64,000 nucleotides of DNA from Candidatus Nanohaloarchaea archaeon (lineage in GTDB: Archaea; Nanohalarchaeota; Nanosalinia; Nanosalinales; Nanosalinaceae), in contig JBEQBC010000003.1 of assembly GCA_041640035.1 (NCBI GenBank), forward strand, positions 44,945 through 108,944, given 5' to 3'. Below the pieces are notes generated by a model. That model did not search any database and had not been told where the DNA came from. It was given only the letters and a program-made list of their open reading frames with translations. Positions 24,648 through 37,517 of the stretch are shown piece after piece; within the stretch, counting starts at the first letter, position 1, and every line of letters starts with the position of its first letter. Position numbers and translations under genes: made by a program.

Positions 24648-26711
24648 TTACTTAATCAAACTTCCTACATCCATCTCCTGATCTGTATCCAGAAGTGATA
24701 CATTTCCTTCTTCGTCTTCAGCTGCCAGCATCATACATTCACTGACTTCTCCACGCAGCTCTGCAGGCTCAAGGTTAGCCAGTACAACTACTTTCCGTCC
24801 CTCGAGTTCCTCTTTATTGTAGTGGTTCTTCAGTCCTGCACAGGTCTGCAAGGTGGTTCCGCCCACATCTACCTGTACTTTATACAGTTTATCTGCGTTC
24901 GGATGCTCTTCTACTTCAAGAACCTGACCTACACGGATATCCATGTCTCCGAACTCCTCAAAGCTGACGGTATCTGTGTTCAGCTCTGTTTCTTCCTCAA
25001 TCTCTTCTTCCTCCTGTTCTACATCGATCTTCTCGAACAGGATCTCTCTTTCACCTAGTTCTGAGCCACCTGCGATTCCGCCGATGAGCGCATCCGTGAA
25101 CTCGCTGTCACCTTCCTCTGTATGGATTTCGGTTTGAAGCATCTCCTGGATCTTCTCGGATGTATCCGGCGTGAAAGGATACATCGTGACGGCCAGTCCT
25201 CTGATTATCTGGATCGAGACCTGTATTACCGGTTCTCTTCTCTCCTCATTGTTCCATGGTTCTTCCTCGCTCAAGTAACGGTCTCCGAGCCGTGCGAGTT
25301 CAAGTGCTTTGTCCAGTGCTTCACGCAGTTCATGTCTCTCGAAAGCGTCCTGATAATCGTCGATTATGTCTTCTGCTTCGCTGATTATCTCTCTGTCCTC
25401 ATATTCGAGTTCTGCGGCCGGTACCTTATTGTCGAACCATTTCTCTGACAGGCTGAGAGTCCGGTTGACGAAGTTTCCGACTGTGTCGTTGAGTACATTA
25501 TTGATTGTGGATTCAAAGTCGTCCCATGAGAACTTGGTATCGTGATCCTCCGGAATGTTCTTCGCCAGATAGAAACGCCAGTAATCCGGTGGATGCATGT
25601 CCAGTGCATCCTCTGTACGCAGTCCTTTTCCACGGGATTTAGAGAACTTGGTATCCTCGGCCAAGAGGTACTGCTGAATGAACTCGTAATGCGGCAGTGC
25701 GTAGTCCTTCTCCTCTGTGGAGCTCCCAATCAGCATAGAAGGCCAGATAACTGTATGGAACACTGTGTTGTCCTTCCCGATGGAGTAGTACACATCCGCG
25801 TCACCGGTCCAGTAATCCGTCCACTCATCGTCATCCTCGAAAAGTTCACGGGTAAAGCCGATGTAACCAATCGGAGCATCAAACCAGACATACAAGACTT
25901 TATCGCTATAACGCTCCTGGTCCAATTTCTGGACCTCTACGCCTTCTTCTTCGATCCGTTCGTTTACTCTTTCTACTGGTATATCGAATCCCCAGTCTAT
26001 ATCACGGGTGATACAGCGGTCCTCAAGCTCATCTATAGTATTCATAACCTCTTTCTTGCTTGAGTCAGGGATCGGTTGTGGATCGGCGTCTTCCAGCCAG
26101 TCACGTAGTTCATCCTCGAACTGAGGTAAATCCAGGAAGAGATGTGTGGTTTCCTTGAACTCTACATCGTTTCCGCCACATATCTGGCATTCGATTTCGT
26201 CCAGTTCTTCCGGTTCAACCAGTTTTCCGCAGTCGTCGCACTGGTCTCCTCGGGCTAGTCCGCCGCAGTGCGGGCAGGTTCCTTCTATGTACCGGTCTGG
26301 TAGGAATCTTTCGTCGTTGTTGCAGTATGCTAGTGTTTGTTCTTTTTCTTTGATGTACCCGTTCAGGTACAGTTCTGTGAACATGTCGTGTGTCTGTTTC
26401 TTGTTGTATTCGCTGTGTGTCTCGGAGTAGATGTCGAAATCCATGTTGAAGTCGTTGAGTACTTTTTTGACTTTCTCATGGTTCTTCTCTTTCAGTTCTT
26501 CGACATCCATTCCCTGTTCAAGTGCTTCTAGCTCTAGAGGTGTACCGTGGACATCGCTTCCACATACGAACCGGTGGTCTGTGCCTTTCAGATCGTTGTA
26601 TCTGTTGAATATATCAGCTGGAAGCAGGCTTCCTACAATATTTCCTAGATGTGGTACTCCGTGGATATACGGTAGTGCAGAAGTAATCGTAACTTTTTGG
26701 TCGTCAGTAAT
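24648..26711 (-). CDS. metG: Methionyl-tRNA synthetase with C-terminal tRNA-binding domain; probable ATT start
   Basis: Frame continues upstream of the ORF-track ATG (26510) through TSALPYIHGVPHLGN and GSDVHG; zinc knuckles, YVWFDAPIGY, KFSKS, HPNADKL. Product is secure; start codon is inferred. Confidence 0.93.
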   Translation of the reverse strand: MTDDQKVTITSALPYIHGVPHLGNIVGSLLPADIFNRYNDLKGTDHRFVCGSDVHGTPLELEALEQGMDVEELKEKNHEKVKKVLNDFNMDFDIYSETHSEYNKKQTHDMFTELYLNGYIKEKEQTLAYCNNDERFLPDRYIEGTCPHCGGLARGDQCDDCGKLVEPEELDEIECQICGGNDVEFKETTHLFLDLPQFEDELRDWLEDADPQPIPDSSKKEVMNTIDELEDRCITRDIDWGFDIPVERVNERIEEEGVEVQKLDQERYSDKVLYVWFDAPIGYIGFTRELFEDDDEWTDYWTGDADVYYSIGKDNTVFHTVIWPSMLIGSSTEEKDYALPHYEFIQQYLLAEDTKFSKSRGKGLRTEDALDMHPPDYWRFYLAKNIPEDHDTKFSWDDFESTINNVLNDTVGNFVNRTLSLSEKWFDNKVPAAELEYEDREIISEAEDIIDDYQDAFERHELREALDKALELARLGDRYLSEEEPWNNEERREPVIQVSIQIIRGLAVTMYPFTPDTSEKIQEMLQTEIHTEEGDSEFTDALIGGIAGGSELGEREILFEKIDVEQEEEEIEEETELNTDTVSFEEFGDMDIRVGQVLEVEEHPNADKLYKVQVDVGGTTLQTCAGLKNHYNKEELEGRKVVVLANLEPAELRGEVSECMMLAAEDEEGNVSLLDTDQEMDVGSLIK

Positions 26712-26773
26712 TATTGGTACACCTCTACCACAGATTTCAAGTTCTGAAGCTTTAAAGTCTAATCCGCCGACCT

Positions 26774-27544
26774 TTAGACGATCCTGCGCTTCAAACGGTT
26801 CAGGTTTGACAACCCGAAATCAGGCTCCTCCATGCCCTCAAGGTCGGAAAGCTCATCGCGACTTAACTCTCCTGTCATGATGGCAGCGGTCTTCAGACCA
26901 AGCCGGTTACCTAGTTCGACATCAACCTTTCTGTCTCCTACAAGTAGTGTTTTCTCGTTGAAGTAGCTGAAGTACCTTTTGAAGTACCGTCTGAAAACAG
27001 GTGAAGGCTTACCGATATTCTGAGGCTCTGCGTACTCCGATAAAGCGTTGTTCACTGCTTTCTGGTGAGGCATAGCTTTTTTCGAAGTATGGAAAGTTCT
27101 TTCTGTACTGCAGACATACAGGTCGCCGCCTTCATCAAGTATATTGAAAGCTCTACGCAGTTTATCATAGTTGAACTGACGGTCAAAACCTACTACAACT
27201 GTATCAGCCTCATCACTTACACGGATATCCTCGTCCTCCAGTTCATCGATCAAACCGGATTCGCCGATCACATAAGCTTCGTTAACATCTTCTTCTGCTA
27301 GTTTCTGAGCTGCAACATAACCAGAGGTAATGACATCTTCTTTATCGGTATCTAGTCCCATAGAGGTCAGTTTCTCTGCGTATCCTTGTCTGGAAAGTCT
27401 TGTATTATCTGTAAAGTATTTTACATCGATATCGCTGCTTTTTAGGCTTTGAATCACTTCATCTGCTGGGAACACAAAGTCGTCCCAGTTCCAGACTGTC
27501 CTGTCCAGATCCAGAAAAACTGTTCTCAGTTCGTTGAAATCCAT
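26774..27544 (-). CDS. HAD-IIA hydrolase (NagD-like)
   Basis: DLDRT, TDN, GKPS, VGDRKVD. Confidence 0.88.
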   Translation of the reverse strand: MDFNELRTVFLDLDRTVWNWDDFVFPADEVIQSLKSSDIDVKYFTDNTRLSRQGYAEKLTSMGLDTDKEDVITSGYVAAQKLAEEDVNEAYVIGESGLIDELEDEDIRVSDEADTVVVGFDRQFNYDKLRRAFNILDEGGDLYVCSTERTFHTSKKAMPHQKAVNNALSEYAEPQNIGKPSPVFRRYFKRYFSYFNEKTLLVGDRKVDVELGNRLGLKTAAIMTGELSRDELSDLEGMEEPDFGLSNLNRLKRRIV

Positions 27545-27659
27545 GCATACAAATTGGAGGTGAAATCTAATAATGGTTGAGTTAGTCCGAATACATGGTA
27601 CAGCAGTCTAAAACCTTCAGCCTCTCTTTTATTTGAAGAAGAAGAATACTAAACCTGAG

Positions 27660-30182
27660 ATGAACTGCAAAAAAATCTTTGTTCTCATCTTACTAATCCT
27701 GATGTCCTCTCAAGTTATGGGTTACACTAACTGGGACGGCGGAGAGCCAAATGATGCAGGAGATGGAGAGGACTGCGCTGAGGCGAACTGGAACGGTGAC
27801 AGATGGAATGATATCGGCTGTAATGATGATCATCCAGGCATATGTGAGTATCAAGATGGTACATATGATACTACTTCTTCGATGGACTTCTCTGCGGCAC
27901 GTAATGAGTGCCAGTCTCGAGGAGGACATCTCGTAGTCATGAATAGTGCGAGCGAAAACGACTACATATACAATAATTTCGGTAACGGTTGGCTGGGCTA
28001 TTATCAGCCACCAGGTTCTTCAGAACCGGCCGGAGGCTGGACCTGGGTAGAAACTAACGAACCTCCTGTCATCAATCCGGATGGTAACACAGATAATGAT
28101 CCAAATCCGGCAGAGGTCACGGGAACCAGTCCCAGTAATGGTCCTAATCCTACTCTTTCAGTTGATGTTTCTGATCCTAACGATGAACCCTTAAATGTAG
28201 AGTTTTACCGTGACTCATCAAGCTGGAACACTGTTCTGTCTGAATCTTTCTCTGGTGGAACTTCCGGATGGTCCTCAGAGACAGGTAATCTAGAAACAAG
28301 AACCTCTTCAAATGGTGATCAGTGGCTAGCACCGCAATGCACCACCGCTGTACAGACTAACAGAATATCCGAAACAATAAATGATGGTGGAATGACTTAT
28401 GACCGTGTGAGATATGATGTTGAGGTAGGGGCTCTTGACAGTTGGGATAATGAGTATCTAAGATTGCAGTTGAAGACTGATGGCTCGTGGACCACGGTAG
28501 AGTCAAGAACGCCTCACTACGGTGGAAGCGAAGCCTTCCCCGATATGCAGTGTTATAATGATTTTGACAGTCCTGGAAGATACAGTTTCACTGGTGAGAT
28601 ATCTACAGACGATATATCGGGAGTTAGAGTGTTGACAGGCTTGAATCAGGATGACGATGATGAATCTGTCGCAATAAATAATGTGGATATCGAAGTCAGA
28701 AGAACTCAGACGCTTATAGGTACTGATGGATCTGTTGATGGAGCAGGAGATGTAGCAACTCAAGAATGGAACGGTTTAACATGTGGTGCATCATATGACT
28801 GGTTCGTTAAAGCTATAGAAGAAGATGGTGAAGCCTCCACCACCAGTAATGTCTGGAGCTTCGATGTAGACTGTAACGAGCCTCCTCAAATCTCAATTGT
28901 AGAGCCTGCCGAATCCACAGATACAGGCCTAGTAACTTCTACATCCCCTCAATTAAGGTTATCAGTCTCTGATCCAGACGACTCAAGTCTCGATGTAACA
29001 TTCTATGATAACGACGGAAATGTGATTGAAACGAAAAATGATGTATACTCTGATGTCAATGCAGAATGGACTGGTCTCACGAAGGGAAATCAATACTCGT
29101 GGTCTGCTGAAGTCTGTGATGACGGAGGCGAATGTGATACATCCTCCACAGCAACTTTCACAGTAAACACCCCTCCAGAGGAACCTGAGTCACCAAATCC
29201 GAGTGACGGTGTTGAGGGAATCGATCACAACTCAGTCACCCTCTCCTCATATGTTGAAGATCGGGACGGCGACAACATGCAAGTTACCTTCTCAGGAGAT
29301 TCTGGAACAGATTCTTTCTCGAAGTCTACTGATGTTTCAGGCTCTGGAACTGCTTCGGTTTCTGTCACCGGGCTTCAGCCAGGTACGCAGTATGACTGGG
29401 ATGTAACCGTGGAGGACGAACATGGAGCCTCCACAACAGGTGAAACTTGGAGCTTCACCACTAACTATTTGCCCGCTATAAGAAATCCTCAACCGCAGAA
29501 CGGAGGATTCATCAGTTCTGATTCTGTTGACCTCAGTGTTGATGTTTCGGACGATGATGGAGATATGACTAATGTCCGGATCTATGATGATTCCGGCGCT
29601 CAGATCGGAAGTGGTTCAACTTCTGACGGATCTGAGGTCACTGTTGATGCGGATTATACAGGGTTGACATATGGAGAGACCTATGATTGGACTGTTGAAG
29701 CAGAGGATGCTTACGGTACCAACTCGAAGACATTCAGTTTCAATGTGATAGGCGGTGGAAGCTTCCGGACTGAATCGGGTATAGACTACGAGTACAGTTC
29801 TGTGGTGAAGTCAGGCAGTCAGACACGATTCATCGAATACGAGGTCACGAACAGGAATGTGAATGATAAGGAACTGGAGACAGGTATTTCAGGTCCTGAA
29901 GCCTCTTTCTCTCAGTACTCTGGCGATACACATGCCTATACTTTGGGAGGTGGCGAGACGAAGACTTTCAGAATCCAGATTACGGAAAGCCAGCCAGGCG
30001 ACTATGATTTACAGGTTGTAACCGAGAACCAGGAGCTCGGTATTCAAAATGCAGATACTATACCGGTACTGGTTCGAGAATACCCGGCTTCCGGTGTTGA
30101 ACGGGTCCCGGGTATAGGGATGCTTCATGTCGTGATACTGATTGCCAGCGGCTTAGTGATAACTGTTTTCGGATCTGTGTAA
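27660..30182 (+). CDS. Large surface protein: permuted C-type lectin head, Ig/FN3-like repeats, C-terminal VPG-TM anchor
   Basis: Signal peptide; GEPND..EDC..WND..C..ICE and ARNEC..GGHLV..END..WLG segments; repeats with L.VDVSD.D...YDW.V.A; terminal VPGI plus TM. Confidence 0.8.
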   Translation: MNCKKIFVLILLILMSSQVMGYTNWDGGEPNDAGDGEDCAEANWNGDRWNDIGCNDDHPGICEYQDGTYDTTSSMDFSAARNECQSRGGHLVVMNSASENDYIYNNFGNGWLGYYQPPGSSEPAGGWTWVETNEPPVINPDGNTDNDPNPAEVTGTSPSNGPNPTLSVDVSDPNDEPLNVEFYRDSSSWNTVLSESFSGGTSGWSSETGNLETRTSSNGDQWLAPQCTTAVQTNRISETINDGGMTYDRVRYDVEVGALDSWDNEYLRLQLKTDGSWTTVESRTPHYGGSEAFPDMQCYNDFDSPGRYSFTGEISTDDISGVRVLTGLNQDDDDESVAINNVDIEVRRTQTLIGTDGSVDGAGDVATQEWNGLTCGASYDWFVKAIEEDGEASTTSNVWSFDVDCNEPPQISIVEPAESTDTGLVTSTSPQLRLSVSDPDDSSLDVTFYDNDGNVIETKNDVYSDVNAEWTGLTKGNQYSWSAEVCDDGGECDTSSTATFTVNTPPEEPESPNPSDGVEGIDHNSVTLSSYVEDRDGDNMQVTFSGDSGTDSFSKSTDVSGSGTASVSVTGLQPGTQYDWDVTVEDEHGASTTGETWSFTTNYLPAIRNPQPQNGGFISSDSVDLSVDVSDDDGDMTNVRIYDDSGAQIGSGSTSDGSEVTVDADYTGLTYGETYDWTVEAEDAYGTNSKTFSFNVIGGGSFRTESGIDYEYSSVVKSGSQTRFIEYEVTNRNVNDKELETGISGPEASFSQYSGDTHAYTLGGGETKTFRIQITESQPGDYDLQVVTENQELGIQNADTIPVLVREYPASGVERVPGIGMLHVVILIASGLVITVFGSV
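29165..30115 (+). repeat. Diverged duplication, copy 1 (stalk/anchor region; copy 2 at about 34498-35445)
   Basis: Near-identical protein blocks; identical 29-mer TACGAGTACAGTTCTGTGGTGAAGTCAGG at 29787-29815 and 35119-35147. Confidence 0.9.
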
Positions 30183-30219
30183 ACGATTTAAGTTAGAGAC
30201 CTCTAAATTCATTAATAGA

Positions 30220-30648
30220 ATGACGGAGAATGAGGAAGTGGAGAAATCTTTCGCAGAAAAATTTAATTTCTTGACTCGCTTTGACAAACGAGACTATGCG
30301 ATAGGTTTTCTAACTGCTTTACTTATCGCCAGTCTTGGCCTGAATGTTTTTCAGATGCATGGTGATTCGGATAAATATGTAGAACCGGAAGAAGCAGGTA
30401 ATCTAACTGTGAATGCTGTAAATGATAATATACTGTATCCTTCACCGAACAATGTTACTGCGACTCTTGTGAATGTGACTGAAGATGATCAGTACGGTTT
30501 AGATAACTTCTACCGTGTCAGGATGAATGTAACCAATCCTGCCGGCAGCCAGATAACAAGTGTATATACCAAGAAAGATGGTTCAGTTGCGTTCCTGCAG
30601 TTCCCACGGAGATTAAGCGGAAGCTTTGAAGAAGGGAGGTATCACTGA
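30220..30648 (+). CDS. Membrane-anchored hypothetical protein
   Basis: Single TM helix and several NxT sequons. Confidence 0.65.
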   Translation: MTENEEVEKSFAEKFNFLTRFDKRDYAIGFLTALLIASLGLNVFQMHGDSDKYVEPEEAGNLTVNAVNDNILYPSPNNVTATLVNVTEDDQYGLDNFYRVRMNVTNPAGSQITSVYTKKDGSVAFLQFPRRLSGSFEEGRYH

Positions 30649-31184
30649 TGAACTGGAAGATACCGATATTAACCTTGATTCTGGTTATCGGGGGGACAGC
30701 AGGTTACTACGAATTCTTCGGAGACAGCGAAACCTATGAAGGGGTAACGGAGATGGTGCCAATCGTAGGAGACCAGGAACCAGAGAACAAGATGTATGTT
30801 TCTTATACTGGTTCTGAAGAGTACGGAGATATTCAGGTGACTCCAGAGTACCTTAAACTAGCTAACTCGACTACGGGAGATGTGCAGAGAACTTATGATG
30901 GTGTAAACGAGACATTTTCTCTCAGTGAACTGGATAGAACACCTGTTTTCAGCTTTCCAGCTTTTGAAGAGTACGATATACTGGTCAGCTTTGATGTAAA
31001 TGATCCTCAGAACAGATCACTGCTTTACAACGAACTGAATCAGATGAGGTACAGGAATTCGATTGACTTTGGTTCTCGTGACAGTTTCAACATCACAGTT
31101 GATGTGAAAGGAGCTGAAACCGGTGATCAGCTTGTCTACTCCCCTGAACTTGATTATCAAAGTCCTTCAAGAGACTTCAACTGA
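30648..31184 (+). CDS. Membrane-anchored or secreted hypothetical protein
   Basis: N-terminal hydrophobic helix; start overlaps upstream stop. Confidence 0.65.
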   Translation: MNWKIPILTLILVIGGTAGYYEFFGDSETYEGVTEMVPIVGDQEPENKMYVSYTGSEEYGDIQVTPEYLKLANSTTGDVQRTYDGVNETFSLSELDRTPVFSFPAFEEYDILVSFDVNDPQNRSLLYNELNQMRYRNSIDFGSRDSFNITVDVKGAETGDQLVYSPELDYQSPSRDFN

Positions 31185-32126
31185 ATGAATTCCTTCTATA
31201 ACCGCTGTTTTATCGAGAGCGAATTCAGAATTCTTAATCAGGTACAAGCGAGATTTCTCGATATCTCCAGCTACCAGATATTCGCTGTTCTTATCCAATA
31301 GACTGGTGAAGTAAGGTTCGCTTCTTGGCTCTAGAGCAATTTCTTCGACCCTTTCTCCTCGTTCAAGATCGACTAGGGCTACTTTCCCATCTACCATGTT
31401 AGTTACTGCGACTTTATCTTCACTTGTTCTCTGTATACCATGTGGTACAAATGTGGTTGGGAGCAGAACTGTACTGTTCTCTTTATCTTTGATTTCTGAC
31501 ACAAATCCTTTCGTCACAGTATGTATATGTCCTGAAGTATTGACCTGTAATCTTTTTCTTCCCGCTACATAGATATTTTTGTTGTTTACAGAGAAAGAGC
31601 CCATCCAGCTTCCGGTTTTGATATCTCTTTCAGCCTTTAGATTTTCGTTAAATACTTGAATGCTGCCGTTTATGTTACCGGCGTAAAGACTGTTCTCTTT
31701 ATAGATTAGTTGATGAGGGCTTCTTCCGGTCTTTATCTCATCTAGCGTCTCTCCGTCTCTCGTTATCTTGACTATTTTACCTGAGTTCTCATAAGCAAGG
31801 AAAATCGCTTCTTCTGAGACAGCGAAGCCATGAAAACTCTGATTTGAGGAATAAATCCTATCCGTATTCTCTTCTACCCTGTAAATCGATGAATTATTAC
31901 CTGACTGGGTAGAAGCAAATACTGTTTCCTCTGATCTCTTTATTTCATGAACAACGCCTTCAAGATCTGCTATCTGACTGGTCTCACCTCCTTCAAAAGA
32001 TACTATCCTTCCATCATCTGTCCCAGCCAGTATATCTTCTTCACTACTTGGAGCAACTGAAAGTAAACCCAGTACCACAGTCAGAGCTGTTAAGGATGAG
32101 ATCAGAATCTTACTGCGTCTTTCCAT
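31167..32126 (-). CDS. Secreted beta-propeller protein (YVTN/YncE-like)
   Basis: N-terminal TM; blade-like repeats (TGRSPHQL, VPHGI...VAVTNMVDGKVALVD). Confidence 0.7.
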   Translation of the reverse strand: MERRSKILISSLTALTVVLGLLSVAPSSEEDILAGTDDGRIVSFEGGETSQIADLEGVVHEIKRSEETVFASTQSGNNSSIYRVEENTDRIYSSNQSFHGFAVSEEAIFLAYENSGKIVKITRDGETLDEIKTGRSPHQLIYKENSLYAGNINGSIQVFNENLKAERDIKTGSWMGSFSVNNKNIYVAGRKRLQVNTSGHIHTVTKGFVSEIKDKENSTVLLPTTFVPHGIQRTSEDKVAVTNMVDGKVALVDLERGERVEEIALEPRSEPYFTSLLDKNSEYLVAGDIEKSRLYLIKNSEFALDKTAVIEGIHSVEVS

Positions 32127-32184
32127 CTATCTACTGTATAGGACAGGGTCACCAATAAAAGCTAGATTTAAGAAGTATTTACCA

Positions 32185-35100
32185 ATGCGGTTGAAACTAT
32201 CCGTTTACACCTTGATTTTTCTAGCACTTTTATCTGCCGCAGTATCTCATCCCAGCGGTGACACTGGTTCAAACGGTTACACTGTTTCAGACGATGCTAT
32301 TGAAAGCTCTGTAGATTTTACTGATCTTGAACAGGAATGGAAGTACACTCAGGAAATCAACATGCAGCAGAACTGGGACGGCAACCTGGCGTGGGAGGGA
32401 ACACACAAGGTCTTCTCAGTGCAGGTCAACACGAAGAAACTTATTGAGGAAGGTAAGATGAGGGAGGACTGCGCGGACCTCAGAATGTCCTGGAACGAGA
32501 AAATAGTGCCTTCCAGAGTCCAGGCAGGTGACTGCGGTTCAGAGGATACATGGGTATACTTTTCAAACGCCAGAGAAGACAGAGAAATGCTTTTCGACCC
32601 ACAGAAAGAAGTAGAATCGATTAAATTATACTACGGTAACTCCGATCCCGGCAGAAGACATGAATCCGTATCTCCCTCAAATGATAACCAAGCGACCTAT
32701 GTGCATCCTGAAGGTCCTATCGAGATGTACTACGGAACACATCAGACCACAACATATGTCAATGACGATACTGACATGACCAACGAAGGGGTTTCAGGAG
32801 GAGAAGGTTACCAGACCTGGGAAGTTGATTTCCAGAGCAGTAGCTATGGAGATCAACCACCAGACTTCATCAGCATATCAGACAACGACGGGAACCGTGC
32901 AACCGTGGATAGTCCTGGTGATTCGTACACTATAAACGGAAATGATTACAACTGGATAGATGAAGGAGAGCCAATATCTGTCTATTTCGAAGTGTGGGAT
33001 GTTGAATCCTCAACTGTTACGAATGACTGGCCTGTCACTAATAGGGCACCTAATCAGCCTAGTAATCCTGATCCTGCGGAGACCACAGGTACCTCTCCTG
33101 TCTACAGTACTTCTCCAATGCTCAATATAGATGTATCCGATCCTGACAGCTCGGATGATCTGAATGTTGATTTCTTCAGCGGGATTTCAGAGACATGGAA
33201 CTTCGGTACATGCGGCTCAACAGGAAGCAGCGGTCCTTCCCAGAGCCAGTGTGACTCATCTTATTCGGGAACTACTTTGGATGGACAGGTAAATATAGTG
33301 AATCCGGGTATTCAGGAATGGACAGTTCCTCGTGATGGAGTTTACAGGATAAGAGCAGCGGGTGCAGAAGGAGGCCTGGGAGATGGCGCAGTTATGCAAG
33401 GAAAATTCAACCTGAATCAAGGACAGACAATACAGATACTAGTAGGTCAGCAGGGATCAAATGACGGAGGATCTGGAGGCTCTTTCGTAGCAACCGGAGG
33501 CTCCCATACATCAGCTAATCCACTGGTTGTCGCTGGTGGAGGAGCTGGAGGAGATCAGAGCTACCAAAGCTACACAGATGGTTCAGACAGTACACCTGGC
33601 GAGGACTCCCAGAACTCAGGCGGAGGAAACAATGGATATGGTGGAGGTGCTGGTGACGGAGGAGGTGGAGGAGGCTTCTACGGTGACGGTGCTGACGGTA
33701 CAGCCGGTCCAGGAGGATTCGCCTTCAGAAACGGTGGCTCGGGAGCCACTAATGGAAATACCGCTGGTGGTTTCGGTGGTGGAGGAGCTACCGAAGACGG
33801 CGGTGACGAAGCCGGTGGAGCAGGTGGATACTCTGGTGGAGCCGGAGCAGACGATGGATCAAATAATGGAGAAAATGAGATAGCTGCTGGAGGAGGAAGC
33901 TTTATAGACTCCTCAGCTAATTCAGCAGCCACTCATACCGGCAGCTTTGGCGATAGCTCTACTAATGATAACGGTTACTCTGGAACAGTAGATGATCTCG
34001 GCGGTATGAATACTGGACAGGGATATGTAACTATTGAGGCAGAAGGCCGGCAGCTAGGAGAGGATAACAATGTTGGAAACGGTAACACAGCACAGTTCGA
34101 ATGGAGTGGTTTGACTGAAGGTCAGACATATGAGTGGTCAGCTAGAGCTTGTGACCCAAGTGGGCTGTGCACTACATCTCCTTCCTACAGTTTTGATGTG
34201 AGTGAGGGTCCTCGTCAACCTGATAATCCTGATCCTGCGGATGGAGATACTGTGTATGCTCCTTCCGGTGATGTGAGTCTTTCAGCCAGGTACAGACATA
34301 CAGGCGGTACTTCAGGAGAGCCTGGAACATTAACTTTCTACAATCAAGATGGTTCTCAGATCGGTAGCTGCCAGGCAGATCACAACGAAAGATGTTCCGT
34401 TAATAAGAATGTGAATAATGGCCAGAGGTATGACTGGTATGTGGTAGCGGAGTATAATGGTCAGACAGCAACTAGCTCCGACTGGTACTTTAGAACAAAT
34501 ACCCCTCCAGATCAGCCTAATAATCCATCACCTACGGATGGGGCTTCCTCTGTTGATTACAACAGTGTAACTCTGACAGCTGATGTAAATGATGCTGACG
34601 GGGATGATATGGATGTTACATTCAGTGGTAGTTCGCCATCCGATTCTTTCAGTGAGACGACAACTGTGTCCGGAAGCGGTGAAGCACAGGTAACTGTAAA
34701 CAATCTAGCTGAAGGAGAATCCTATGACTGGACTGCTGAAGCGGAGGATGTGTACGGTGCGACTACGACCAGTGACACATGGATTTTCACTACTAATTAT
34801 CTTCCTACGATCGATAATCCGGAACCTCAGGATGGTGCGTACTTGAGTTCGGATGAGACTGAACTGAATATTGATGTCTCGGACTTTGACGGCGATATGA
34901 CCAATGTCCGTATTTACGATGAATCAGGTGCTCAGATCGGAAGCGGATCAACATCTGACGGATCAGAAGTTACAGTGGATGCAGATTATACAGGACTAAG
35001 TTACGGTAATACCTATGATTGGACGGTTGAGGCCGAGGATGCATACGGTACTAATTCTCGTACCTTCAGTTTCAGCGTGATAGGAGGAGCAAGTTTCAGA

Positions 35101-35511
35101 ACTACATCTGGAATTGATTACGAGTACAGTTCTGTGGTGAAGTCAGGTGGCCAGACACGGTTCATTGAGTACGAGGTTTCAAACAATAATGTTGGGGATA
35201 AACAGTTGGAGACCCGGCTTTCCGGTGTCGACGCAACATTTTCCCAGTATTCCGGTGATACACATACTTACACGTTGAACGGTGGTACCACCGAGACATT
35301 TAGAATCGGTATTGAAGAAGATCAGATCGGTGAGCATGAACTTAGTGTTACTACTGAGGATTTAGAATTAGGTGTTGAGAACACTGATACTATTCCTGTG
35401 CTTGTTAGAGAGTATCCTGCGTCCGGTGTAGAAAGGGTTCCTGGATTGATGTGGGTCCAGGTACTGTTCCTTGTAGCCGGAGCTACAGTTCTTTATTCTG
35501 CTTTACTCTGA
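32185..35511 (+). CDS. Large surface protein: DUF2341-like domain, ALK/LTK-like glycine-rich domain, Ig/FN3-like repeats, VPG-TM anchor
   Basis: Signal peptide; DCADLR..LYYGN; FGTCGSTG..GPSQSQC..GIQEWTVP..ILVGQQG..GGFGGGG..GGYSGG; C-terminal part paralogous to 27660-30182. Confidence 0.8.
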   Translation: MRLKLSVYTLIFLALLSAAVSHPSGDTGSNGYTVSDDAIESSVDFTDLEQEWKYTQEINMQQNWDGNLAWEGTHKVFSVQVNTKKLIEEGKMREDCADLRMSWNEKIVPSRVQAGDCGSEDTWVYFSNAREDREMLFDPQKEVESIKLYYGNSDPGRRHESVSPSNDNQATYVHPEGPIEMYYGTHQTTTYVNDDTDMTNEGVSGGEGYQTWEVDFQSSSYGDQPPDFISISDNDGNRATVDSPGDSYTINGNDYNWIDEGEPISVYFEVWDVESSTVTNDWPVTNRAPNQPSNPDPAETTGTSPVYSTSPMLNIDVSDPDSSDDLNVDFFSGISETWNFGTCGSTGSSGPSQSQCDSSYSGTTLDGQVNIVNPGIQEWTVPRDGVYRIRAAGAEGGLGDGAVMQGKFNLNQGQTIQILVGQQGSNDGGSGGSFVATGGSHTSANPLVVAGGGAGGDQSYQSYTDGSDSTPGEDSQNSGGGNNGYGGGAGDGGGGGGFYGDGADGTAGPGGFAFRNGGSGATNGNTAGGFGGGGATEDGGDEAGGAGGYSGGAGADDGSNNGENEIAAGGGSFIDSSANSAATHTGSFGDSSTNDNGYSGTVDDLGGMNTGQGYVTIEAEGRQLGEDNNVGNGNTAQFEWSGLTEGQTYEWSARACDPSGLCTTSPSYSFDVSEGPRQPDNPDPADGDTVYAPSGDVSLSARYRHTGGTSGEPGTLTFYNQDGSQIGSCQADHNERCSVNKNVNNGQRYDWYVVAEYNGQTATSSDWYFRTNTPPDQPNNPSPTDGASSVDYNSVTLTADVNDADGDDMDVTFSGSSPSDSFSETTTVSGSGEAQVTVNNLAEGESYDWTAEAEDVYGATTTSDTWIFTTNYLPTIDNPEPQDGAYLSSDETELNIDVSDFDGDMTNVRIYDESGAQIGSGSTSDGSEVTVDADYTGLSYGNTYDWTVEAEDAYGTNSRTFSFSVIGGASFRTTSGIDYEYSSVVKSGGQTRFIEYEVSNNNVGDKQLETRLSGVDATFSQYSGDTHTYTLNGGTTETFRIGIEEDQIGEHELSVTTEDLELGVENTDTIPVLVREYPASGVERVPGLMWVQVLFLVAGATVLYSALL
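34498..35445 (+). repeat. Diverged duplication, copy 2
   Basis: Paralogous to about 29165-30115; many differences are at synonymous positions. Confidence 0.9.
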
Positions 35512-35674
35512 CAATATATCCAGCGACTCGGTTACGCAGTCTCTTGGAATTGAACTCTTCTGTCTCCTTGAGTTCCTCTTTGTTCTCGTCGAAGTCCTCG
35601 GAGAACTTTTCTTCATCTGCGTTTACAAGGTCGCGTGCAAGTCTTTTGACATAGGTCTGTCTTACTCTTCCCAT
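35483..35674 (-). CDS. rps17e: 30S ribosomal protein S17e
   Basis: MGRVRQTYVKR..FSEDFDENK..SKRLRNRVAGYI. Confidence 0.96.
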   Translation of the reverse strand: MGRVRQTYVKRLARDLVNADEEKFSEDFDENKEELKETEEFNSKRLRNRVAGYIVRVKQNKEL

Positions 35675-35755: not shown

Positions 35756-36712
35756 TCACTGAAGATAGCCCAGATCTCTGAGTATCTGCTCTTGATCAGA
35801 ATTAGTCTCCTCAACACTTCTATCAGGGTCATAGGTTTCAAGGTCTTCTGCACTGGTTTCAATCCAGGGTACTTCTCGGAGTGCATCGACCGCTATCTTT
35901 CTTTCATGGCCGTGAACACCCATCTCTTCCCTGTTGAGTCTTCCGAGCGCGTTTCCGTGGTCGGCTGTGATAACGGTTTTCTCCGCGTCTATATTGTCCA
36001 GTAGAATTTCGACCTCATCCATCACGGTTCTCAAGTTATCTCTGTAGAGCGGCCAGACCTCATCTCTCGTAGTTTCGCCCAGCAGTATCTCATCCCATGG
36101 GTCTCTTCCCGGGTTCTCACCCCATGTTTCAGGATTGACATCTGTACCTAGCTCAGGTTTATCCAGAAAAGGATAATGTGGCTGCATATAATGCACTACC
36201 AGTCTGTCCTCATTCATCTGCCGTGAGAGGTCTATGGCCGCATCGGTGATCGGCCGTGGCATGATAGCTCCTTTCTCGCTGTCGTGAGCGTATCTCCAGG
36301 CTTCCTCCATGTGAAGAAAATCTTCGCCTTCAAGGTAGTCCTCCGAAAACCCGTTTCCGGTAACCATCAAAGTGTCTTGTTTTTCATCGCTGAATTCGTC
36401 GGAGAAATTTCTTCTCATCCATTCATCTGAAGCACCAGCCCAGGAATAGAAGGTATCGAAGTCCTCATCCACAAAATCATATTCCTCTACAACCTCTTGC
36501 ATGAGGTCAGGTCGACATGCATCAAGAACAATCATCGCATCCCAGTCCTGATCGTATACAGGTTCTCCCTGATGGGTTTTACCTGTCAACTGGTGGAGCC
36601 CCTTCAGTGCGGAAGAGTAGCCGAAGTAGGATGCGCGGATTGCTGTATCTCTCAGTCCGTCTTCCTGAAGGCTTTCTATACCTGCCTCTAGAACTTTTCC
36701 AGTATAACTCAC
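35756..36712 (-). CDS. Alkaline phosphatase/sulfatase superfamily protein
   Basis: IVLDACRPD, HYMQPHYPF, ITADHG, HGH, REVPW; probable GTG start at 36712. Confidence 0.8.
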   Translation of the reverse strand: MSYTGKVLEAGIESLQEDGLRDTAIRASYFGYSSALKGLHQLTGKTHQGEPVYDQDWDAMIVLDACRPDLMQEVVEEYDFVDEDFDTFYSWAGASDEWMRRNFSDEFSDEKQDTLMVTGNGFSEDYLEGEDFLHMEEAWRYAHDSEKGAIMPRPITDAAIDLSRQMNEDRLVVHYMQPHYPFLDKPELGTDVNPETWGENPGRDPWDEILLGETTRDEVWPLYRDNLRTVMDEVEILLDNIDAEKTVITADHGNALGRLNREEMGVHGHERKIAVDALREVPWIETSAEDLETYDPDRSVEETNSDQEQILRDLGYLQ

Positions 36713-36797
36713 AGTGTTGTTACCCCTGTAAAATAATTTAACGGTTTGCTGTAGAGCCATCATGACTCATATAACCTTCGTACACCAGTCAGTTATT

Positions 36798-37517
36798 ATG
36801 ACTGACCTACTTTACTATCCGGGAAACGAGTACGAGAAAGAGTTCAAAGCTGAAGTAACGAAGACGAAAGAGGCTGACGGATATGTATGCCTGGATCAAA
36901 CCTTGTTCTACAAGGAAGGTGGTGGACAGCCCGCGGATCACGGAAGAATTTCCTGGGATGGCGGAAAAGCACAGGTAACAGATGTACAGAAAGAACACGG
37001 CGAAATAAGACATTATATCGAAGGAGATATCCCAGAACCTGATACTGAAGTACACGGCAGAATCGATTGGGATCGCAGATACAAACACATGAGAATGCAT
37101 ACCGCCCAGCACATCCTGTCATGGGTCGTACTCAACATGTACGATGCATCCACAGCAGGAAACCAAATACACGAAGATTACAGTCGTATCGATTTCGAAC
37201 CAGCTGACTTCACAGATGAAGAGGTCGAGAAGATTGAGAAAGCAGCTAACGCACTTATCGAGAAAGAGCTAGAAGTTGAGAAGAAGGAGATGGATCGGGA
37301 ACTTGTAGAGGAAAGAGTTCAGGAAGGAAGAACCAATCTGGATATCATCCCTGACAACATAGACCCTCTGAGAGTGGTCATCATCGGCTCAGAAGACCTG
37401 TGTCCTTGCGGCGGTACACATGTTGATAACTTGAAGGAGATAGGAAAGATCAGGATCAAGAACAGAAAGAGTAAAGGCTCAGATGTAGAAAGATTAGAGT
37501 TCGAACTTGAAGATTAA
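36798..37517 (+). CDS. alaXM: Alanyl-tRNA editing protein AlaX-M
   Basis: GGGQPAD, MRMHTAQH, CPCGGTH. Confidence 0.93.
   Translation: MTDLLYYPGNEYEKEFKAEVTKTKEADGYVCLDQTLFYKEGGGQPADHGRISWDGGKAQVTDVQKEHGEIRHYIEGDIPEPDTEVHGRIDWDRRYKHMRMHTAQHILSWVVLNMYDASTAGNQIHEDYSRIDFEPADFTDEEVEKIEKAANALIEKELEVEKKEMDRELVEERVQEGRTNLDIIPDNIDPLRVVIIGSEDLCPCGGTHVDNLKEIGKIRIKNRKSKGSDVERLEFELED

Follow-up and report, generated by a model that had tools for sequence, protein, structure and literature searches.

We analysed a stretch of 64,000 nucleotides (nt; the window) from a Candidatus Nanohaloarchaea archaeon (GenBank assembly GCA_041640035.1, contig JBEQBC010000003.1, positions 44,945 to 108,944 of the forward strand). 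The subject is a pair of genes for large, putative surface proteins, A (positions 27660..30182 of the window) and B (32185..35511), which are both on the forward strand. Nanohaloarchaea are obligate symbionts of haloarchaea and need contact with the host cell. The genome has 0.98 Mb in 24 contigs and is 89% complete, and near-identical DNA was found mostly in metagenomes of hypersaline lakes. Both proteins are strongly acidic, with an isoelectric point of 4.05. B has 1108 amino acids (aa) and the orthologue P0005. A has 840 aa if translation starts at the ATG at 27660, which coincides with the start of the orthologue P0004 (77%; a second orthologue is P0003, 98%). An upstream TTG at 27633 would yield 849 aa, and the residue numbering of A below follows this longer reading. 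G-numbers denote the genomes of relatives (G000 is the own genome), P-numbers homologous proteins, and L-numbers loci.

Both proteins have a similar order of segments. A starts with a hydrophobic signal segment (27660..27722, read from the hydropathy of the sequence), followed by a putative circularly permuted C-type lectin domain (27723..28052), the N-terminal half of an FN3-like repeat with strands A-C (28053..28208), a predicted beta jelly roll of a rare, unnamed sequence family that is inserted into this repeat (28209..28706), the C-terminal half of the repeat (28707..28874), three uninterrupted FN3/Ig-like repeats (28875..29744), a conserved C-terminal domain that is the hallmark of the family (Cdom, 29745..30104), and a VPGIG motif with a hydrophobic helix, a short tail, and the stop codon, i.e. 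a putative archaeosortase sorting signal (30105..30182). B comprises a head that is probably related to the DUF2341 module (32248..33039), the N-terminal half of the FN3-like repeat 1 (33040..33177), an insert that resembles the ligand-binding domain of ALK and LTK (33178..34050), the C-terminal half of the repeat (34051..34200), three uninterrupted repeats (34201..35076), Cdom (35077..35436), and a VPGLM motif with a hydrophobic helix and the stop codon (35437..35511). In both proteins Cdom is supported by an alignment and by a profile search.

The distal parts of A and B are unrelated, and the proximal parts are clearly homologous. BLASTP aligned 496 aa (A351-843 with B615-1103) at 56% identity, and the last 314 aa are 70% identical. 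From repeat 2 onwards, the identity climbs toward the membrane, from 25% in fn2 via 57% in fn3 to 81% in fn4 and 75% in the C-terminal domain; the value for the C-terminal half of repeat 1 (fn1C) is 47%. A hidden Markov model (HMM) was built from seven uninterrupted repeats. It detects three intact repeats in each protein (in A with E values of 1e-35 to 1e-40), and several Pfam models exceed their cut-offs in the stalk repeats, i.e. Ig_Rha78A_N (39.6 versus 27.4), fn3 (25.5 versus 25), and Big_10 (24.9 versus 22.9). The same HMM matches a further repeat in two complementary parts, namely A155-~192 (HMM positions 8-58) and A359-411 (47-98), and B286-~331 and B615-671 (40-98). In both proteins the interruption is at HMM positions ~45-53, directly past the strand LNVEFY in A and LNVDFF in B. 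An earlier interpretation of the same DNA, made without database searches and here called the sequence-only reading, had proposed two proteins with a common C-terminus and a first repeat that is split in each by inserts at 28209-28705 and 33184-34041; the alignment, the half-matches on both sides of the inserts, and the borders determined here (28209-28706 and 33178-34050) agree with it.

The sequence-only reading also implies that the flanking segments fold together. In an AlphaFold2 (AF2) model of B22-680, the predicted local distance difference test score (pLDDT) is ~80 in both half-repeats (~82 in the N-terminal one). When the half-repeats of B were modelled as separate chains, the interaction prediction score from aligned errors (ipSAE) was 0.70 in three runs, compared to 0.00 for the best of three controls; of a set of solved complexes, 58 of 80 attain the mark applied, compared to 2 of 110 mismatched pairs. 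The halves make ~180 contacts, with a partner pLDDT of 86 and a contact agreement of at least 97% between runs, and the strand pairs 290-295/614-618 and 306-310/630-635 correspond to strand B with E and strand C with F in a sandwich of the FN3 type. The two half-repeats are thus predicted to re-form one sandwich, as the sequence-only reading required. The test used our own alignment, and FN3 is a well-known, solved fold, so that the pass indicates likeness to FN3 and is not an independent proof.

Comparison with relatives shows that the same position is used repeatedly and filled differently. The repeat is split at HMM positions ~45-53 in 15 of 39 family rows, or in 14 of 38 when P0010 and the G001 protein (L025), which are apparently the same protein, are counted once; the count leaves out G016, which has a gap of ~82 aa, below the threshold, and in G015 the sequence is truncated where the contig ends. 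The jelly roll occupies the slot in A, P0003, and P0004, and the glycine-rich domain in B, P0005, P0007, P0009, G001, G017, and G019. P0006 and P0177 combine a B-type head with an orthologous repeat that is not split, and P0006 spans the whole insert region as a gap in the alignment; this also supports the view that the two halves form one domain. P0008, again with a B-type head, carries an unrelated insert of ~170 aa. Inserts of ~340 aa that contain PA14/GLEYA are present in G005 and also in G015, and G010 has ~100 aa in the slot. The largest content, ~690 aa in P0043, comprises a glycine-rich domain, a canonical C-type lectin, and three repeats, after which the split repeat resumes; a C-type lectin thus takes the head position in one protein, A, and the slot in another, P0043. 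The different slot contents behind the same head support the view of a scaffold for surface display, the variable parts of which are the N-terminus and one loop of repeat 1.

As judged from sequence searches and the structural model, the insert of B is an ALK/LTK-type domain that combines a TNF-like and a glycine-rich part (TG domain). A phmmer search of the PDB matched eight distinct ALK/LTK sequences in the ligand-binding ectodomains of the human proteins, including ALK 7lrz (E 1.1e-12, query residues 6-95) and LTK 7nx0 (E 2e-12, residues 4-157), and the top 20 Foldseek ranks are all ALK/LTK, with 7nx3_F as the best match (E 1e-15, TMt 0.64, 27% identity). Hmmscan yielded no match to the corresponding Pfam family, PF12810, at E<=1 for the insert or for B, and the Pfam and NCBIfam results were blank; the homologue in G019 scores 24.6 bits, compared to a cut-off of 24.5. 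A word-based search retrieved 363 proteins at E<=0.001, many of them with a precomputed PF12810 assignment. Many are bacterial surface proteins with type IX secretion, cadherin, or PKD domains, and the boundaries of the insert match those of the same domain in these bacterial homologues. A passage in PMC9608196 describes the pair of a TNF-like and a glycine-rich domain as the host-receptor-recognising tip of a cyanophage tail fibre, and in animals (ALK/LTK) as well as in phages (tips Pam3 gp24 and S16 gp38) the domain binds ligands or receptors. The copy in B differs in its setting, being embedded in an FN3-like repeat and in an archaeal protein. The literature found on PF12810 contained nothing related to the A/B family.

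The insert of A has no match in Pfam or NCBIfam, and only 19 related representatives were found at E<=0.001 among 1.84 billion proteins. Nine of these relatives were scanned against Pfam; PKD repeats were found in five and the N-terminus of an archaeal pilin in two, and no named domain was found in any of the nine where the jelly roll lies. In most of the relatives matched, the domain is located at or near the C-terminal end. An initial alignment that mixed homologues of the insert with those of the stalk misaligned the insert and was dropped. The block-mean pLDDT values of the AF2 model are mostly 73-95, with one block at 65. The best structural matches are CBM22, CBM16, and CBM4 carbohydrate-binding modules (CBM), with MAM and Eph ligand-binding domains close behind. 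VIA aligned 137 residues (model range 60-216) with CBM22 4xup at a Z score of 12.8 and a root-mean-square deviation of 3.1 Å; over the range of VIA matches, Z is 12.8-12.0 for CBM22/CBM16 and 11.8 for LAST-MAM, with ~3.1 Å over 131-138 residues. Foldseek gave an E value of 7.8e-6, and a search of the Atlas returned unnamed clusters only. The model therefore suggests a CBM-type binder by fold that is outside any named CBM sequence family.

The heads of the two proteins are unrelated, as had been noted before. That of A matches Pfam Lectin_C with 55.2 bits (cut-off 22.6) in two stretches, the best of which places residues 27-72 on profile positions 67-106. BLASTP aligned A31-76 with residues 83-129, i.e. 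the C-terminal half, of the canonical lectin of P0043, and A62-138 with residues 5-76, the N-terminal half. By these alignments the lectin is a circular permutant, in which the C-terminal half with the EPN and WND motifs comes first and is followed by the N-terminal half. The two motifs, which mark calcium-dependent binding of mannose-type sugars, can be read directly in A. The domain thus shares its score and its motifs with animal-type C-type lectins (PF00059), and the order of the halves is swapped in A and also in a G020 homologue, the best Pfam stretch of which is again 67-106; P0043 and a G013 protein have the canonical order. A diversity-generating retroelement acting on the lectin was considered and rejected; blastn of the island against the genome revealed only the 673 nt shared by A and B, and neither a second copy nor a template repeat. 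The head of B has no Pfam or NCBIfam match. An hhalign comparison with the DUF2341-bearing region of a G015 protein reached a probability of 92% (E 5.8e-7) over a stretch that only partly overlaps the PF10102 match of that protein, the Atlas gave a weak lead of 0.79 toward DUF2341, and the word-based search found only four homologues. The DUF2341 (PF10102) relationship named in the sequence-only reading is therefore plausible, not proven.

In all members of the family, a C-terminal domain of ~120 aa is followed by a short linker, VPG[I/L/P/M]G, and a terminal hydrophobic helix. Of 23 tails of relatives, 22 have PG ahead of the helix, as do A and B, and the motif is not PGF. The conserved motif in front of a hydrophobic helix suggests a sorting signal. 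A pattern scan of the own genome (open reading frames, ORFs, of at least 150 aa) found such a tail on A, B, one other large surface protein, and two doubtful short ORFs. The third large protein (G000:C1:197642-201388; L050:643-4392, forward strand) has 1249 aa and an IPGIM plus helix tail, with one FN3-like repeat, a cysteine-rich middle part, and 3 N-glycosylation sequons versus 14.3 expected.

A candidate for the processing enzyme is encoded elsewhere in the genome (G000:C1:166474-167052; L049:1474-2052, forward strand). This 192-aa ORF matches TIGR04178, the signature model of exosortases and archaeosortases, with 37 bits versus 23, and the copies of the gene in relatives score 46.8 and 45.1 bits. 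Its PF09721 score is 22.3, compared to a cut-off of 25.7, so that the PF09721 search of the own genome was misleadingly negative, and the gene was recovered with the protein of a relative as query. None of 26 family genomes exceeds the cut-off of the ArtA model TIGR04125, with five matches below the threshold. The gene is convergent with a gene for a FlaK-like prepilin peptidase. Judged from its family, the 192-aa enzyme is probably the processor of the VPGxG tails. The arrangement resembles the PGF-CTERM/archaeosortase A system, in which a motif, a helix, and a short tail likewise occur on large acidic Ig-domain proteins and an enzyme of the family is present. It differs in that the motif is VPG[I/L/P/M]G, the enzyme of ~192 aa is below the ArtA cut-off, and A and B are devoid of sequons; processing is only predicted.

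The genes occupy a variable island between two housekeeping regions that is conserved across the nanohaloarchaeal family. In the window, the left flank encodes methionyl-tRNA synthetase (MetRS) and a HAD-IIA phosphatase (24648..27544, reverse strand) and the right flank an AlaX-like editing protein (36762..37517, forward strand). With the C-terminal 320 residues of A as query, matches were obtained in 29 of 41 relatives, and within the same family the count was 22 of 24 genomes; a profile search with Cdom detected the proteins in 47 of 50 family genomes and in 22 of 23 high-quality genomes. For 19 of 20 fetched loci, the family gene or genes adjoin MetRS/HAD and/or AlaX, and 11 of the 20 have all three markers; L044 is a different genomic place. 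The fixed flanks enclose genes for one or two large proteins, in some cases together with a small protein that consists of Cdom only, and the modules at the loci of relatives include PA14/GLEYA, VWA, LamG, Lectin_C, DUF2341, and PF12810. The Cdom-only proteins have 160-176 aa and a VPGxG tail (L029:5763-6242, reverse strand; L030:6730-7251 and L038:7898-8425, forward strand), and they adjoin a large family member in G005, G007, and G024. In addition, Cdom plus tail has 2-4 matches per genome, on ORFs of up to 3761 aa. The possibility of a mobile island was rejected: the flanks are housekeeping genes, the G+C content is unremarkable, and no tRNA gene was found in 15000-45000.

Three ORFs lie between A and B. 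A small ORF of 142 aa (g142, 30220..30648, forward strand) has an N-terminal hydrophobic helix. It is followed by one of 178 aa (g178, 30648..31184, forward strand), the start of which overlaps the preceding stop; no family was found for either, Pfam and NCBIfam being blank. An ORF of 319 aa is located on the reverse strand (g319, 31167..32126). The sequence-only reading had described three membrane-anchored or secreted genes, including a beta-propeller. A 19-residue hydropathy scan found N-terminal hydrophobic segments in g142 and g319 and none in g178, where a stretch is visible by eye only, and the propeller, which would be g319, is based solely on Pfam matches below the threshold (WD40_like with 19 bits versus 40). 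None of the three ORFs was found in the 20 fetched loci of relatives. g319 is present in 2 of 41 genomes, i.e. in G000 and in G002 of the same genus. In G002 the gene, 96% identical, is on a contig of 2.2 kb (C54, L046), and a search of the assembly for the adhesin stalk gave no match, which hints that flanking adhesin genes may have failed to assemble. A further ORF of 335 aa between B and AlaX (35756-36763, reverse strand) has no Pfam or NCBIfam match and was not found by BLAST in the loci of relatives.

How the different modules arrived in the slots can be approached by comparing A, B, and their orthologues. The sequence-only reading had suggested shuffling by recombination through the shared stalk DNA. 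This DNA is 71% identical over 673 nt, with a longest exact match of 29 nt, and the synonymous divergence (dS) between A and B is saturated at ~2.7, with nonsynonymous values (dN) of 0.14-0.20 in fn4 and Cdom. The combination of the two indicates purifying selection on the conserved part. Among A, B, P0004, and P0005, 108 site patterns follow orthology, one is concerted, and one is crossed. These values, together with the unchanged layout in a strain of ~94% identity, speak against ongoing exchange between A and B, and recombination via the shared stalk DNA is only weakly supported. It is a serious possibility, somewhat short of even odds, that the slots are not actively exchanged, and that the proteins are old nested composites that were inherited vertically, with rare insertions and losses and a stalk under purifying selection. 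Besides the divergence values and the site patterns, this would explain the presence of the glycine-rich domain at the same loop in the distant genera G017 and G019, and it fits contigs of four runs, which have no joint inside A or B in the parts with cover.

Several observations are at odds with purely vertical descent. Proteins with the same head vary in the slot, which is empty in P0006 and P0177, filled otherwise in P0008, and glycine-rich in B, and the lectin is in two different places in A and P0043. P0003 has 12 differences from A in the shared region; all five within A residues 739-807 carry the residue of B, compared to none of the seven elsewhere, and in the runs X2 and X3 contigs break off at 29846/29864, where their last letters code for this B-like patch as well. 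The patch in the A gene of this sister strain looks like a short tract of B-to-A gene conversion between paralogues. In a tree of the C-terminal domain, three genomes are represented by two full-length copies each, and the copies are sisters in every case, with support of 100/99 in G020, 100/100 in G018, and 100/99 in G000 (together with G001), and their distal parts differ; the bootstrap had not converged, and most of the deep branching order is not resolved. The patch and the tree are in favour of some exchange. Two joints in run X1 (27505 to 35542 and 27508 to 35505) skip ~8 kb, with a shorter side of 26-27 letters, which is too few. A contig of X2 runs from 35444 back to 30152, with 39 other letters at the joint, a possible assembly artefact at the shared domain.

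We propose, with a probability of about 60%, that A and B are anchored adhesins, the variable modules of which bind glycans or proteins of the host envelope. The proposal is built on the ligand-binding type of the modules, on a split-domain scaffold similar to that of RTX adhesins, and on published suggestions of lectin-like recognition. The two paralogues would be exported by an N-terminal signal and held at the membrane by the C-terminal cassette, in which a beta-sandwich domain is followed by the VPGxG motif and the hydrophobic helix and which the small archaeosortase-family enzyme of the genome probably processes. The chain of FN3/Ig-like domains would act as a stalk with binding modules at its far end in two positions. 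One would be the N-terminus, with the permuted C-type lectin in A and the DUF2341-like module in B. The other would be the loop after strand C of repeat 1, from which the CBM-type jelly roll of A and the ALK/LTK-type TNF-like/glycine-rich module of B would project sideways, while the half-repeats re-form one sandwich. Between MetRS/HAD and AlaX, the family keeps the anchor cassette and varies the binding modules, and binding to the envelope of the haloarchaeal host may contribute to the specificity of attachment. Of this picture, the architecture, the identities of the domains, the site of insertion, the natural variation, and the synteny are results of the analysis, and archaeosortase processing, adhesion, and a part in host specificity are inferred from them.

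A functional parallel is found in bacteria. According to PMC12077191 and PMC10865825, RTX adhesins, e.g. FrhA of Vibrio cholerae and those of Aeromonas, also have stalks of Ig-like sandwiches and display ligand-binding domains from a split distal sandwich, and their module combinations vary between species, as they do here. They differ in being bacterial proteins with type I secretion, calcium-binding RTX repeats, and N-terminal retention at the outer membrane, whereas A and B are archaeal, apparently Sec-type, and anchored at the C-terminus. No RTX match was found in the Pfam scan of A and B, so that the likeness is functional and limited to split-domain display. Parts of three reports on nanohaloarchaea propose that lectin-like surface proteins mediate attachment to the host (PMC7443923, PMC10266531, bioRxiv 10.1101/2023.02.24.529834). 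The LamG/ConA-lectin and PKD proteins of cultivated nanohaloarchaea are likewise large, secreted or anchored, strain-specific, and proposed to act in attachment; the respective passages of PMC7443923 and PMC10266531 do not mention such a locus, a split-repeat slot, a glycine-rich domain, or a VPGxG tail, and members of the family may bear other names there, for instance among the genes annotated as S-layer glycoproteins. The literature found on domain insertion in FN3-type archaeal adhesins contained nothing on the A/B family.

A number of results weigh against the adhesin proposal or parts of it. The AF2 models are of moderate quality, with mean pLDDT values of 75 and 60; the head of B is mostly below 60, and the glycine-rich core of its insert is at 32-47, so that only the TNF-like part is well modelled. 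At moderate divergence the layout does not vary: the architectures of A and B are kept in P0004 and P0005, which apparently lie on one contig, and a strain of ~94% identity that was seen in two runs has the same layout of both genes. The archaeosortase-family ORF scores below the cut-off of every named subfamily and, being on contig C1, is unlinked to A and B. The genes between A and B show no conservation among relatives and are therefore not part of a family-wide system. Finally, N-X-S/T sequons are completely absent from A and B, with 11.1 and 14.1 expected, which is unusual for archaeal surface proteins; the genome-wide ratio of observed to expected sequons is 1.04, close orthologues of A and B have 0-3, and distant family members are not depleted.

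Two other functions were considered for the pair. A and B could be structural proteins of the S-layer, with membrane-proximal domains that form or anchor the lattice and variable outer modules that diversify mainly under pressure from viruses and not for binding to the host. The family is indeed nearly universal, with one or two copies at a fixed housekeeping locus, and Cdom-only proteins adjoin the large ones in three genomes. Acidic chains of Ig-like domains with an archaeosortase-type signal resemble the S-layer glycoprotein of Haloferax, which is the classic substrate of ArtA. Nanohaloarchaea possess an S-layer according to part of bioRxiv 10.1101/2023.02.24.529834. The complete lack of sequons, however, makes A and B unlike an S-layer glycoprotein, and two other secreted-looking ORFs are better candidates and, by their sequences, possibly the major envelope glycoproteins. 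One of them (G000:C2:37777-39576, L051, reverse strand), with an N-terminal signal, has 25 sequons versus 10.2 expected, and the other (G000:C1:184869-187640, L052) has 24 versus 12.3. In addition, the occurrence of Cdom and tail at the end of other large ORFs points to a general anchor, and the distal modules are typical ligand binders. An S-layer function thus appears unlikely. Even less probable, in our view, is a role in nutrition, in which the lectin, CBM-like, and PA14 modules would tether polysaccharides that are free or released by the host. It would be in accord with the EPN/WND motifs and with the similarity of the jelly roll to the xylan-, mannan-, and glucan-binding CBM22/16/4, and PMC7443923 reports that cultivated nanohaloarchaea live on polysaccharides. 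Yet likeness in fold does not fix ligand specificity, glycine-rich, VWA, and DUF2341 modules are atypical for glycan harvest, and no glycoside hydrolase or transporter is encoded in or beside the island.

The adhesin proposal can be extended to a more specific one, which we consider doubtful as a whole. In this joint reading the island between MetRS/HAD and AlaX would be a plug-in locus for host recognition that accepts any binding module at the N-terminus and at the loop after strand C of repeat 1, from none to ~690 aa of tandem domains. Duplication or gene conversion would keep the anchor cassettes of a genome alike, a small archaeosortase of a new class would recognise their VPGxG tails and sort them, and the sequons would have been purged in the genus to prevent binding by the proteins' own lectins.

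On what sets the haloarchaeal partner of a DPANN symbiont, the literature is confined to broad lectin-like classes. The MetRS-AlaX locus would offer a concrete candidate that can be found by synteny, with an allele series of empty, glycine-rich, jelly-roll, PA14, and composite slots and with domain boundaries precise enough for the modules to be expressed and tested one by one. The locus would bring to archaea the principle of split-domain display that is seen in bacterial RTX adhesins, place an ALK/LTK-type ligand-binding domain in an archaeal adhesin-like protein, and point to an unclassified pair of archaeosortase and sorting signal in a genome of ~1 Mb.

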